Positions 8,186-63,605 of a DNA stretch of 64,000 nt are shown piece by piece (position 1 is the stretch's first letter; every line of letters begins with the position of its first letter). The stretch is taken from contig JANWLD010000001.1 of NCBI GenBank assembly GCA_025451045.1, positions 407,468-471,467 on the forward strand, in the 5' to 3' direction. The position numbers and the translations under genes were made by a program. The DNA is from Candidatus Saccharimonadales bacterium. Lineage in GTDB: Bacteria > Patescibacteriota > Saccharimonadia > Saccharimonadales > 2-12-FULL-41-12. Under the pieces are notes generated by a model. It saw only the letters and a list, made by a program, of their open reading frames with translations. It searched no databases and had not been told where the DNA came from.

Positions 8186-8247
8186 CCCGTAGTGAGCCTC
8201 CTAGTTGCTTCGCAAAATAACCTAAGTTCTAGGAGGTCTACTACGGG
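8186..8247 (+). repeat. GTAGTGAGC-type palindromic element, copy 1 (MITE-like)
   Basis: Termini are CCCGTAGTGAGC ... GTCTACTACGGG. The 19-position stem has 16 Watson-Crick pairs, 2 G.U pairs and 1 A-C mismatch. Identical ATGAGC flanks it at 8180-8185 and 8248-8253. Confidence 0.75.
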
Positions 8248-18373: not shown

Positions 18374-18450
18374 CCCCGTAGTGAGCTTTCGAGACCGCCA
18401 CTTTGTGGCGCTTCGCTTCTTGAGCGAACAACTCGAAAGTCTACTACGGG
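18374..18450 (+). repeat. GTAGTGAGC-type palindromic element, copy 2
   Basis: CCCCGTAGTGAGCTTTCGAG ... CTCGAAAGTCTACTACGGG with two internal mini-hairpins. Flanked by GTAAA on both sides. Confidence 0.75.
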
Positions 18451-30342: not shown

Positions 30343-31941
30343 ATGAGCGAAGACGCACGTGCCGACGAAGAGCGCGCAACCCAACGCCGCGCCCAGATAC
30401 TGGGCATGAGTTATACCGATACCTCGGGTTCTGAAAAGCCGCTTTATAAGGAATTGCTGGTCCCCGATGAAATGCGCGAGAACCATTCTATTCCGATTTA
30501 TGCCGATGAACACCATATAAATTTTGGGGTAACGAACACTACTTCCCAGCAGACGATGCAGGAATTGCGCAACCGTTTCTTGGACCAGCGGGTCTCATTC
30601 ACGCTTATTTCCGACACGGGCTTTAAAGATTACATGTTGCTTTATGACCCTCCGAAAAAGATTGAATATCAAGATGTGGAATTATCCAAAGAAGGCGACA
30701 TTGACTTATTTTCAGAGGTCAGTGAAACGCTTGAAAAAGTCCTGGCTGATGACATCTTGGCTTATCTGGTAAAACAGACCTACCAGCTGAAAGGCTCCGA
30801 CATCCACTTGGAGAACCAGAAAGAAGGCGTGCGGGTCAGGATAAGGGTTGATGGCGTACTCCATCCGGTAGCGGCGCTTAGCCATGAGAAATATCATCAG
30901 TTGCTTTCATCTATCGCCATTGCCGCAAATGTATCAACTGCCGACCCCAATCCGCAGACCGGGCATATCAACAACCAGTATAAGCTGGCTACCGGCGAAG
31001 AAGTAACTGTAAACTTGCGTGTCGAGACCGTCCCGACAGTCTATGGCCAAGACGTGGTCATGCGGCTTTTCAACCTGAAGATGGAACTGCTTAATTTGGA
31101 CAAACTGGGGCTTTCCGAGCGTGAAAGAGCTCCGGTTGACGATATCATTACCCACCCCAGCGGTATGGTGCTGGTGGTCGGGCCGACCGGTTCAGGAAAG
31201 ACAACCACGCTTTATTCGCTGATAAATACCTTGAATTCATCAGAGCGCAAGATAATAACCTTGGAAGACCCGGTAGAGTATTTTCTGCCCGGTATCGTAC
31301 AGATTCCGGTAGCCGGCGATCAGGATGCCACTGGCTTTGCTGACCATTTAAGGGCGGTGCTGAGGCTGGACCCGGATGTCGTCATGGTCGGTGAAATCCG
31401 TGATCAAGATACTGCTCGCACAGCGCTTCAGGCCGCTTTGACCGGACATTTAGTACTGTCGACTTTCCACGCTTCATCCGCCGCGGCCGCTTTGACCAGG
31501 ATGCTGGATGCCATCGGCATAAACCCGCTGTTTGCCAGCGCCATGCATCTGGTGATGGCCCAGCGTCTGATTAGAAAACTGGATGACGAAACTAAAGAAG
31601 CGTTCAAGCCGGACAAAGAACTTAAAGACCAGTTAAAAGCCGTAGTCGACACGCTGCCGCCGAATATGAAGAAACCCGATTTAAGTAAATTAACCCTGTA
31701 TCGGGCTAAGCCGAACGCCAAAAACCCCTTTGGCTTCAAAGGCCAGTTAGCTATCCGCGAGCAACTGGTAATGACCCCGGGTGTTCAACAGCTTCTGCGG
31801 TTGCCGCCGAATGAGATAACTACGGATATATTGGAAAAGAAGGCTGTTGAAGACGGAATGTTAACCATGCTTCAAGACGGCGTACTGAAAATAATCAACG
31901 GCGAAACTACTTTAGAAGAAGTTTACCGTGTAGTAAGTTGA
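30343..31941 (+). CDS. pilB: type IV pilus assembly / GspE-family secretion ATPase
   Basis: Walker A GPTGSGKTTT and Walker B/Asp and His boxes (DPDVVMVGEIRD, GHLVLSTFH). Confidence 0.9.
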   Translation: MSEDARADEERATQRRAQILGMSYTDTSGSEKPLYKELLVPDEMRENHSIPIYADEHHINFGVTNTTSQQTMQELRNRFLDQRVSFTLISDTGFKDYMLLYDPPKKIEYQDVELSKEGDIDLFSEVSETLEKVLADDILAYLVKQTYQLKGSDIHLENQKEGVRVRIRVDGVLHPVAALSHEKYHQLLSSIAIAANVSTADPNPQTGHINNQYKLATGEEVTVNLRVETVPTVYGQDVVMRLFNLKMELLNLDKLGLSERERAPVDDIITHPSGMVLVVGPTGSGKTTTLYSLINTLNSSERKIITLEDPVEYFLPGIVQIPVAGDQDATGFADHLRAVLRLDPDVVMVGEIRDQDTARTALQAALTGHLVLSTFHASSAAAALTRMLDAIGINPLFASAMHLVMAQRLIRKLDDETKEAFKPDKELKDQLKAVVDTLPPNMKKPDLSKLTLYRAKPNAKNPFGFKGQLAIREQLVMTPGVQQLLRLPPNEITTDILEKKAVEDGMLTMLQDGVLKIINGETTLEEVYRVVS

Positions 31942-31957
31942 AAACTTTACTACTGCG
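31927..31957 (+). repeat. 31-nt mini-hairpin related to the GTAGT element family, overlapping the pilB stop
   Basis: CGTGTAGTAAGTT-GAA-AACTTTACTACTGCG, flanked by GTTTAC(CG) at 31921-31928 and 31958-31965. Confidence 0.5.
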
Positions 31958-32051
31958 GTTTACCGCGTCGTCAGCTAACCTTCACTTTTCTAACAGATGT
32001 GGTATACTTAAATTTAACTTTCAATAATAAATTAAGGTTATATAGAATCAA

Positions 32052-32600
32052 ATGTCTGTTATTCACGCTATTGAAAAGAAGTACAAAAAGCCGCATGTCG
32101 TAGATGTGAGAAGCGGCGATACGGTTAAGGTTCACCAGAAAATCCGCGAAGGCAATAAAGAGCGTGTCCAGATATTTGAAGGATTGGTAATCAGAACATC
32201 CCGAAAAGACTCGCTTTCCGCTTCAATTACCGTACGGCGCATTGCCAGCGGGGTAGGGGTGGAAAAGACTTACCTTATCCATAGTCCGCTTATTACCAAA
32301 ATACAAGTGGTGAAACGAAGCAAAGTCCGTCGTAACTACCTAAGCTATATGCGGGAAAGAACCGGCAAGTCAGCCCGGCTGTCGAGCGTTGATTTTGACC
32401 AGGAAGAAGTAAACAAAGTACCTGAAGAAGCTAAACCCAAACCAGAGCCAAAAGCCGAAAATAAGGCTGATACAAATGACAGTGCCGAAGAACTAAAAAC
32501 AGAGGCTAAAGAGCCAAAACAAACCGAAGAAGAAAAGCCGGACAAAAAGAAAGAAGAGCCGCAAAAAAGCGACTCTTCCGAAGAGAAAACAAAAGCTTAG
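32052..32600 (+). CDS. rplS: 50S ribosomal protein L19 with K/E/P-rich C-terminal extension
   Basis: L19 core (VRSGDTVKVHQKIREGNKERVQIFEGLVI...GVGVEKTYLIHSP) plus a low-complexity tail of about 65 aa. Confidence 0.9.
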   Translation: MSVIHAIEKKYKKPHVVDVRSGDTVKVHQKIREGNKERVQIFEGLVIRTSRKDSLSASITVRRIASGVGVEKTYLIHSPLITKIQVVKRSKVRRNYLSYMRERTGKSARLSSVDFDQEEVNKVPEEAKPKPEPKAENKADTNDSAEELKTEAKEPKQTEEEKPDKKKEEPQKSDSSEEKTKA

Positions 32601-53877: not shown

Positions 53878-54135
53878 GGGGATGTGGTGGAATTGGTAGA
53901 CATTTACCTGGTAGTAAAGTTCTGGAGGCGCGGTGGTGGAATTGGTAGACACGCTAGTTTTAGGAACTAGTGCCGCAAGGTGTGAGAGTTCGAGTCTCTC
54001 CCGCGCCACCAAAACTTTTACTACTGGGCGCTAGTCCCAGCACTAAAGCAAAGCTTAGTGCTGGACTTTGCTTAGGAACTAGCGTGAAGGTTAGCTTGGT
54101 GCGATAGCCCAAGCGCTGTCCTTTCATCCCCACCA
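53878..54135 (+). pseudogene. disrupted tRNA-Leu-like gene enclosing the intact tRNA-Leu
   Basis: Acceptor 5' strand plus D-arm lie at 53878-53903. CGCTAGT (54029-54035) and TTAGGAACTAG (54072-54082) are anticodon-arm pieces. CATCCCC+ACCA (54125-54135) is complementary to GGGGATG at the 5' end. No T-arm is present. Confidence 0.45.
53927..54011 (+). tRNA. tRNA-Leu (anticodon UAG), type II, CCA encoded
   Basis: Manual cloverleaf: acceptor GGCGCGG/CCGCGCC, D-arm GTG-GAATTGGTAGA-CAC, anticodon arm CTAGT-TTTAGGA-ACTAG, 13-nt variable arm, T-arm GAGAG-TTCGAGT-CTCTC, then ACCA. Confidence 0.9.
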
Positions 54136-63527: not shown

Positions 63528-63605
63528 CCTGTAGTGAGCTCTCTCTAGCATCGTACATAACGATGCATAATCTGCCAAAGGCAGATGAGAGAGATCTACT
63601 ACGGG
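63528..63605 (+). repeat. GTAGTGAGC-type palindromic element, copy 3
   Basis: CCTGTAGTGAGCTCTCTC ... GAGAGAGATCTACTACGGG with two internal hairpins. Flanked by GCTAAC at 63522-63527 and 63606-63611. Confidence 0.75.

Follow-up and report, generated by a model that had tools for sequence, protein, structure and literature searches.

We analysed the 3′ end of the pilB gene in a 64,000-nucleotide stretch of DNA from a Candidatus Saccharimonadales bacterium (the window), and found that a 37-nt hairpin inserted there re-encodes the terminus of the gene and has displaced the original terminus, which is still present downstream as a 'ghost'. The finding is confirmed and is not ordinary noise, and the insertion is recent. 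The gene itself (30343–31941, plus strand) was taken from a list of open reading frames (ORFs) and encodes a pilB/gspE-family ATPase of 532 amino acids (Pfam T2SSE, 1.8e-90). Its product is 100% identical to database protein P0001 and 84–86% identical to the closest other Saccharimonadales proteins; for the window as a whole, the closest named database proteins are those of Candidatus Saccharimonadales metagenome-assembled genomes (MAGs).

A hairpin insertion at the end of pilB

In its live frame pilB ends with V-Y-R-V-V-S-stop (GTT TAC CGT GTA GTA AGT TGA, GTTTACCGTGTAGTAAGTTGA; 31921–31941, plus strand). Sixteen nucleotides past this end, at an offset of 37 nt that places it in another frame, the ghost encodes the same V-Y-R-V-V-S-stop (GTT TAC CGC GTC GTC AGC TAA, GTTTACCGCGTCGTCAGCTAA; 31958–31978, plus strand; this type of pilB end is also written CGCGTCGTCAGCTAA). 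As its frame is closed upstream by a TAA at 31934–31936, the ghost is part of no ORF and is not translated. The two tails differ at five positions (CGT/CGC, GTA/GTC, GTA/GTC, AGT/AGC and TGA/TAA, that is T/C, A/C, A/C, T/C and G/A), all of them synonymous and all at third-codon or stop positions. A first-pass annotation of the window had described the coordinates of the tails, the identical peptide, the five differences and a hairpin at 31925–31959, and it was correct in every detail. With a profile built from 42 orthologous PilB tails, the scores were 29.8 bits for the live tail and 27.8 bits (z 8.7) for the ghost, and nothing else on either strand of the window or of 579 kb of relatives' DNA scored above 12 bits. 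When all stops on both strands of the window were compared, this was the only pair less than 200 nt apart with at least five shared residues before the stops; in simulated sequence, 0.03 stop pairs sharing five preceding residues were expected.

The inserted unit (31922–31958, plus strand) consists of TTTA and a CC...GG hairpin, with the left arm at 31922–31939, the loop around 31940 and the right arm at 31941–31958; its boundaries slide within the 8-nt repeat GTTTACCG. Almost the whole insert is a 15-bp bulged hairpin, predicted at 31925–31959 to form 15 pairs with two single-base bulges (−13.5 kcal/mol, z = −3.5). The left end of the insert carries CGT-GTAGT and the right end ACTAC-TGCG, which is one nucleotide longer. 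From 31922 on, the live terminus of pilB is also the left arm of this unit, which, read in frame, encodes (V)Y-R-V-V-S-stop. Because the left arm re-encodes the tail, PilB keeps its C terminus, ...EEVYRVV(G/S), which is near-invariant across 120 PilB homologues, and it is the old terminus that is now untranslated. Identity across the joints extends over 7–8 nt. GTTTAC is found on both sides of a 31-nt core, and the 8-nt identity of the two tails explains this repeat equally well. The hairpin lacks the features of an intrinsic terminator: a scan of 31700–32150 did not report it, and the stem is A+U-rich and followed by UUUACC only. We found no template within the window for the 16-nt spacer at up to three mismatches, a related copy at a tRNA-Leu locus (see below) differing by an indel. 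Searches against Rfam returned no family for the pilB end, nor for the GTAGT-ended elements and the outer tRNA-like sequence described below. On the minus strand (31925–31962) both tail copies also read L-T-T-R-stop, with third-codon positions coinciding on the two strands; this is a by-product and makes no ORF.

We asked how the five differences could have arisen. Sixteen of the 63 single changes possible in the seven ghost codons are synonymous, which gives P = 0.001 for five random changes to be all synonymous; by our own calculation this rises to ~0.01 if the selected live copy may also take changes. The tails differ at 5 of 7 synonymous sites, which is near saturation, and the other 14 positions of the ghost show no damaging change. 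The first-pass annotation had proposed comparing the divergence of the tails with that of the rest of the gene, and had named chance as an explanation to be checked. The divergence of 5/21 matches the level seen between species along pilB (26%; third positions ~55% different and ~45% identical), and the P values of 0.001–0.01 speak against chance. Codon-usage nativeness did not discriminate between the two tails (−14.3 versus −11.8 bits). In one of its two readings, the insertion of a 31-nt mini-element with duplication of GTTTAC, the first-pass annotation had also supposed that the end of the element happened to restore the reading frame. This part is untenable: all five differences are synonymous (P ~0.001), and the same terminus occurs natively in a relative, L015. 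The incoming tail, differing from the ghost only synonymously, would instead have evolved in a different lineage, as the functional end of a pilB gene.

Alternatively, the end of pilB could have been duplicated locally in tandem in this lineage, and the copies could then have diverged in place, the live one changing only at synonymous sites and partly under selection for the hairpin. This would produce the direct repeat at 37-nt spacing, and three of the five differences between the tails (A32, A35 and U38) do add hairpin pairs. However, the 16 nt that follow the two copies are essentially unrelated (3/16 identical in register; best local alignment p = 0.044), an all-synonymous pattern is as improbable here as calculated above, and the arms around the tRNA-Leu gene are not explained. 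We reject duplication with later divergence, and regard it as extremely unlikely, because the synonymous sites are near saturation yet the unselected ghost is undamaged. A diversity-generating retroelement was rejected as well, since the differences are not confined to template adenines, neither copy fits and the repeat is just 21 nt long. Translational bypassing was set aside because both routes give the same protein.

The pilB–rplS junction in relatives

We gathered 46 orthologous loci: 39 in species-representative genomes, nine in Logan/JGI assemblies and one in a metagenome scan. None of the 46 contains a second pilB tail. In three of them (L084, L085 and L087) the live pilB stop lies 2–4 nt before the −35 box of rplS, which is the place that the ghost occupies in the window. 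The promoter-like site of rplS in the window (31981–32008, plus strand; found by consensus scan) has a −35 box TTCACT (31981–86), a 16-nt spacer and an extended −10 box TG-n-TATACT, and rplS itself, the downstream neighbour encoding ribosomal protein L19, lies at 32052–32600 on the plus strand (Pfam Ribosomal_L19, 2e-36). The end of pilB in L087 reads CGC GTC GTC AGT TAA, GC, then CCTTCACATTTTTAACAGAT / CCTTCACATTTTTAACAGATATGGTATAC; that in L084 reads AGT TAG GA, then CTTCACTTTTTTAACAGAT / CTTCACTTTTTTAACAGATGTGGTATAC, with L085 similar; and the ghost of the window reads CGC GTC GTC AGC TAA, then CCTTCACTTTTCTAACAGAT / CCTTCACTTTTCTAACAGATGTGGTATAC. The promoter region CTTCAC...TAACAGATGTGGTATAC is kept in these three relatives and also in L015 and L016. 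The window thus has the uninterrupted arrangement of its relatives with 37 extra bases, which shows that these 37 nt were inserted, and the ghost, having the same position against the rplS promoter as the live termini of the relatives, is the displaced original end of pilB. Both readings in the first-pass annotation had taken the second copy for the displaced terminus, and the comparison of pilB 3′ ends across relatives that it had proposed bears this out, as the duplicated arrangement is absent from the relatives and the uninterrupted state is present in three of them.

We noted that the hairpin-type terminus also exists outside the window. The pilB gene of L015 (DASUOG010000011, 4580–4610) ends CGG GTA GTA AGT TGA AAACTT-ATTAG, which agrees with the window in its terminus, in the 6 nt that follow, in the loop and in the first bases of the right arm; among the 46 orthologues it is the only one with a hairpin-type terminus (GTAGTAAGTTGAAAACTT plus a partly conserved right arm). 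L015 is not the closest relative and is without a ghost. As it has the terminus and the hairpin natively, the insert would be short homeologous DNA rather than the end of an unrelated transposon. Ghost-type pilB ends are carried by L016 and L087, and several orthologues form hairpins with the pilB tail as the 5′ arm. Decayed ghosts suspected by eye in L015 and L016 (CGGTTCCGCGACCAG, CCGCAGAGGCTAACC) were rejected after an ungapped profile and a gapped alignment gave nothing significant (minimum p 0.047 in 84 tests). The live tail with its loop had no match in a metagenome scan. A degenerate metagenome scan for a duplicated E-V-Y/F-R-V-V coding tail within 7–37 nt gave five matches and no true recurrence: four were unrelated exact tandem repeats, and one was a pilB orthologue with a chance match to the rplS −10 box.

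These native ends bear on the other reading of the first-pass annotation, in which a diverged allele took the place of all or a large part of pilB (or, conversely, of the rplS side). In such an exchange one crossover would have been homologous; the other joint would have been illegitimate and out of register, just past the terminator hairpin of the donor, leaving 21 nt of resident tail, and any similarity to the flanks of tRNA-Leu would be secondary or coincidental. The synonymous-only differences and their between-species level are what such a replacement predicts. It also agrees with the hairpin-type end native in L015, the ghost-type ends in L016 and L087, the pilB-tail hairpins of several orthologues and the ancestral position of the ghost, and both competence and homology-facilitated illegitimate recombination are documented (PMC10633639, PMC6382021). 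However, neither the sliding-window identity of pilB nor the protein identity of seven neighbour genes, compared with eight relatives, gave a mosaic signal or phylogenetic discordance along dnaE-CAP-spoU-pilB-rplS-DUF1761, with the poor resolution that follows from every relative being ~74% identical at the nucleotide level, which makes mosaicism or discordance undemonstrable. In the collections searched, the best non-self protein identity was 86% for PilB, 79% for L19 and 80% for DnaE, with no closer relative of either side. Moreover, a homologous crossover at only 74% identity would be very inefficient, and a joint exactly at the foot of the hairpin has a probability that we estimate at ~0.1 if its position is arbitrary. 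Replacement of an allele explains the synonymous pattern; it leaves unexplained why the insert ends at a hairpin foot, why paired arms of the same kind enclose a nested tRNA-Leu (a pairing seen in none of 150 simulations, see below) and why there is a ghost at that locus too. We consider it improbable.

Other rearrangements were seen at the same place. In three relatives (L086 4601–6027, L097 1490–2916 and L222 3096–4564) pilB and rplS are separated by a small ORF of 85–105 amino acids and a malic-enzyme gene, both on the opposite strand, which makes the junction a recurrent site of rearrangement in the group.

A second unit around a tRNA-Leu gene

The arms of the pilB insert recur, in the same order and on the same strand, at a distance of 22 kb from pilB. 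This second unit (53903–54028, plus strand; 126 nt) is composed of TTTA plus a left arm (53903–53921), CTGGA, a tRNA-Leu(TAG) gene (53927–54011) and a right arm (54011–54028). Its upstream arm TTTACCTGGTAGTAAAGTT (53903–21) corresponds to TTTACCGTGTAGTAAGTT at pilB and its downstream arm AAAACTTTTACTACTGGG (54011–28) to AAAACTTTACTACTGCGG, and the two are predicted to form a duplex of −16.1 kcal/mol. A right arm with at most one edit together with a left arm with at most three edits was found in 0 of 150 simulated windows. The bulged T is kept in both copies, the A and T runs of the two arms increase in length in concert, and both inserts start with TTTA and a stem foot and stop at the other stem foot. 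TTTAC precedes the tRNA copy as it does the pilB copy, and at the tRNA locus it cannot derive from the target. Since the two loci have a background of ~20 matches of 10–12 nt per 111 nt against the window, only the arms can be taken as solid.

The tRNA-Leu(TAG) gene inside the unit (53927–54011) is intact and is the only tRNA in the window (ARAGORN; Rfam 58.6 bits). It is nested within a second, broken tRNA-Leu-like gene. The 5′ part of this outer gene (53878–53902, plus strand) comprises the acceptor strand GGGGATG and the D-arm, including a 19-nt ghost, GTGGTGGAATTGGTAGACA, which is an exact direct repeat of 53933–53951. The 3′ part (54029–54135, plus strand) comprises CGCTAGT, a 36-nt hairpin, an anticodon loop CTTAGGA (TAG), ACTAGCG, an aberrant T-arm region, CATCCCC and ACCA. 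GGGGATG pairs with CATCCCC (54125–54131), which is followed by ACCA (to 54135), and the closed fold of the outer gene is predicted at −57.8 kcal/mol. The 3′ part is colinear with the intact tRNA through a 7-mer (54029–35) and the 11-mer TTAGGAACTAG (54072–82). Twenty-six nucleotides are identical between the intact and the outer tRNA, and the acceptor stems (GGCGCGG/CCGCGCC versus GGGGATG/CATCCCC) differ in a compensated manner. The outer gene was called neither by ARAGORN, when reconstructed with or without the inner hairpin, nor by Rfam. At both loci, then, the live and the disrupted copies differ in a way that preserves function: by synonymous codons in pilB and by compensated acceptor stems in the tRNA.

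The joints of the tRNA unit show 0 nt of microhomology at either side, and there is no target duplication and no core repeat; the missing target duplication counts against the mini-element reading. Among 13 local direct repeats in the window, only two (D7 and D12) are duplications of gene ends, and these fall at exactly the pilB and tRNA-Leu loci, which indicates that the arms and the ghost-forming insertions belong together. The hairpin is a repeated unit tied to additive insertions of like into like. The first-pass annotation had suggested looking for other duplicated gene ends, and in the window this search yields the tRNA-Leu locus with its pilB-type arms. We found no tRNA beside pilB in relatives (44 + 45 loci).

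Two further observations concern the outer tRNA. The 13-mer AGCTAACCTTCAC (31973–31985, covering the end of the ghost and the rplS −35 box) has its exact reverse complement at 54084–54096, inside the broken gene; for the two regions compared pairwise E = 0.001, but with the window as a whole ~0.2 matches of this kind would be expected. The 36-nt hairpin at the anticodon loop (54036–54071; CCCAGCACTAAAGCAAAGCTTAGTGCTGGAC...) has one arm that resembles ACTAGTGCC of the tRNA, and scores 11.9 bits with a model of the GTAGT-ended elements described next, which is noise level.

The window comes from a 538-kb MAG contig, and both loci set two diverged versions of one gene segment side by side, as would be expected if two co-occurring strain alleles had been stitched in series during assembly. 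We consider such an artefact very unlikely. The joints have identical stretches of just 8 nt and 19 nt, which is below usual assembly k-mers, so that reads must span the junctions. In addition, the inserts end precisely at hairpin feet and one functional copy is intact at each locus, neither of which a random mis-join would favour.

GTAGT-ended hairpins are found elsewhere in the window. Three such elements on the plus strand, E1 (8186–8247), E2 (18375–18450) and E3 (63528–63605), are 62–78 nt long, have the ends CCYGTAGTGAGC...TCTACTACGGG in one orientation, fold with z of −6 to −9 and share a covarying inner stem. They are flanked by 6-nt direct repeats, two of the three perfect (ATGAGC/ATGAGC, GTAAAC/GTAAAG and GCTAAC/GCTAAC, respectively), and are probably miniature inverted-repeat transposable elements (MITEs). 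An ATGA stop/start overlap is split by E1, with either neighbour gene retaining its codon through one of the two repeat copies.

The pilB insert could be a short relative of E1–E3, that is, a non-autonomous transposable hairpin whose insertion into pilB duplicated a 6-bp target, GTTTAC. The terminal repeat of the element, C-nn-GTA-GTr-AGn, would happen to encode x-V-V-S; either only such an insertion was tolerated, or the tail attracts the transposase by its likeness to an element end. Several results point this way. Five GTAGT...ACTAC hairpins occur in 64 kb versus 0.5 expected, among them elements with common ends and 6-nt flanks; the pilB insert has perfect GTTTAC flanks and GTAGT 3 nt from its left end, as E1–E3 do; and the unit recurs at tRNA-Leu with its bulge conserved. 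The canonical element end also matches the ghost at 9/12 positions, aligned at the boundary of the repeat, and in Coxiella there are functional genes whose final residues and stop come from MITEs (PMC5896051). The pilB hairpin likewise has GTAGT and ACTAC near its ends, as the terminal inverted repeats of E1–E3 do, so the resemblance of its core to element termini noted in the first-pass annotation holds for the placement of GTAGT. It does not extend to the covariance model of E1–E3, which scores 72–91 bits on these elements and a noise-level 7.4 bits (E ~7) on the pilB hairpin (31927–31957), and which does not detect the tRNA-site unit. Because the ghost matches the element end as well as the left arm does, the likeness of that arm is largely forced by the codons for R-V-V-S. 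Membership of the pilB hairpin in the GTAGT family is thus not demonstrable; it would form a separate family with a related core motif. Scans of viral contigs for both types of repeat gave noise only.

Other facts are also hard to reconcile with a transposable hairpin. The tRNA copy has no target duplication, yet is preceded by a TTTAC that did not come from the target. Arg (CGT) and the in-frame TGA require extra coincidences, as other ends of the family give Pro or Leu and have no stop there. The terminus shared with L015, which has neither ghost nor repeat, is not explained, and for a tRNA-Leu copy to land in an 85-nt tRNA-Leu gene we estimate ~1e-4 per insertion in a ~1 Mb genome. No further copies were seen in the window, and no transposase is linked to the unit, a gene for a REP-associated tyrosine transposase (RAYT; REP, repetitive extragenic palindrome) not having been searched for. 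Of the mini-element reading, then, the recurrence of a hairpin unit around tRNA-Leu stands, lucky restoration of the frame does not, and kinship with E1–E3 could not be demonstrated. We regard a transposable hairpin as unlikely, though it is the main rival to the explanation favoured below.

Origin of the inserts

The explanation that we tentatively favour, while giving it somewhat less than an even chance, is that illegitimate recombination integrated pieces of diverged homologous DNA bounded by hairpins, and that the resident copies stayed behind as ghosts. Before the insertion pilB ended with the present ghost, its stop 3 nt before the rplS −35 box as in several relatives. Short homology would guide a hairpin-bounded fragment of foreign but related DNA, entering most likely by natural transformation, to the matching resident gene, where the fragment would be joined illegitimately beside the resident sequence, without replacing it; the resident copy would be disrupted and the insert would supply its function. 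The same process may have acted at the pilB and tRNA-Leu loci. The stem may shield the ends of the fragment from exonucleases, and such protection would explain why the inserts end at hairpin feet. Saccharibacteria are naturally competent (PMC10633639), and DNA diverged by 17–23% integrates via short micro-homologies by homology-facilitated illegitimate recombination (PMC6382021, citing de Vries and Wackernagel 2002). The evidence agrees with a combination of the two readings in the first-pass annotation: what was added would be a short stretch from the end of a diverged pilB, bounded by a hairpin, and not a whole allele.

Several points weigh against this explanation. We found no donor and no empty-site strain, the closest PilB, L19 and DnaE relatives being at 79–86% protein identity. 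Joints made by homology-facilitated illegitimate recombination usually show 3–10 bp of microhomology, which the tRNA-site joints do not. The point of insertion relative to the homologous segment differs between the loci, lying at the 5′ end of the unit in pilB and 49 nt inside it in the tRNA. The left arm at the tRNA locus resembles a pilB tail, including TTTACC, for which this reading has no explanation; no relative has a tRNA beside pilB. The kept bulged T and the A and T runs that change together make the hairpin look like one recognised by a protein, as transposon ends are. Finally, the window does contain three clearly mobile GTAGT-ended elements with 6-nt flanks, and the pilB insert fits their geometry as GTTTAC, 31 nt and GTTTAC.

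We compared the inserts with known systems. In homology-facilitated or short-patch illegitimate recombination (Acinetobacter, S. pneumoniae, P. stutzeri, B. subtilis), diverged homologous DNA is likewise integrated at a matching locus with at least one illegitimate joint. Such events can restore or replace gene function and leave clustered substitutions and small insertions, and the host group is competent (PMC10633639, PMC6382021). At both loci of the window the inserted segment is indeed a diverged homologue of the resident sequence. In contrast to that process, the piece here came to lie next to the resident copy instead of replacing it, the inserts of both loci are enclosed by the same hairpin arms, neither joint shows microhomology at one of these loci, and no long homologous anchor is demonstrable.

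MITEs and REPs or REPINs at gene 3′ ends (Coxiella QMITEs, Rickettsia palindromic elements, GTAG-head REPs) resemble the unit in that a short palindromic repeat overlaps a stop and supplies the last codons, with GTAG(T) near each stem foot and several copies per genome. REPs carry a GTAG head; the unit has GTAGT in each arm of an imperfect palindrome, a conserved bulged T and two copies in 64 kb. In Coxiella, every functional gene affected has its MITE at the 3′ end (PMC5896051). Unlike in these cases, the new tail of pilB is a synonymous re-encoding shared with the native gene end of another species, the second copy carries a whole tRNA gene inside a homologous tRNA gene, and there is no consistent target duplication.

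Phages and islands that integrate in the 3′ ends of tRNA or protein genes also carry part of the interrupted gene, leave the displaced original as a partial duplicate at the other junction, and have an identical core at both junctions, as GTTTACCG is at pilB. Here, however, only 29–37 nt (or 126 nt) separate the junctions and there is no integrase; at the tRNA locus the core is not repeated, the duplication concerns the 5′ part instead of the 3′ part, and the insert includes a complete tRNA. Integrase-mediated integration was rejected on these grounds, with 29 nt only between the 8-nt repeats at pilB and no core repeat at the tRNA locus. Integration of a circle of the Campbell type does not fit the order of segments at the tRNA locus, and integron attC sites were set aside.

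It is also conceivable, though we think it improbable, that the TTTA-plus-hairpin unit is a new small mobile cassette of Patescibacteria that inserts into the gene whose working copy it carries. Insertion would be guided by homology, the unit would be bounded by a bulged hairpin recognised by a protein, and it would spread between genomes as a self-compensating, replace-by-insertion element with either a pilB terminus (in the arm) or a tRNA-Leu (in the loop) as cargo. The case, which comprises two loci of one genome and a repeat census within 64 kb, is best filed under known phenomena, either homeologous DNA that integrates illegitimately or hairpin repeats that sit at the ends of genes.

If integration of hairpin-bounded pieces is the right explanation, the two loci would be natural scars of one process, in which hairpin-bounded related DNA is added into a matching gene and takes over its function. 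They would then be direct genomic evidence of how competent, reduced-genome Patescibacteria swap parts of essential genes across species-level divergence. If instead the unit were a transposable hairpin, the end of a hairpin repeat could stand in for a conserved protein C terminus and carry a tRNA. On either reading, the lesson for annotation is that ghost gene ends beside hairpins mark recent insertions and preserve ancestral sequence.

The genes downstream of the junction vary among relatives. The L19 protein of the window (182 amino acids) has its Pfam domain at residues 3–111, followed by a Lys/Glu-rich C-terminal extension, which relatives have as well, at variable length (165–231 amino acids). 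Further downstream, the DUF1761 gene and the gene for RNase HII overlap head to head in the window (33061–33016 region). In L085 (2848–3741), L087 (5816–6736) and L088 (5779–6672), an ORF of ~300 amino acids without Pfam domains, absent from the window, lies between these two genes.

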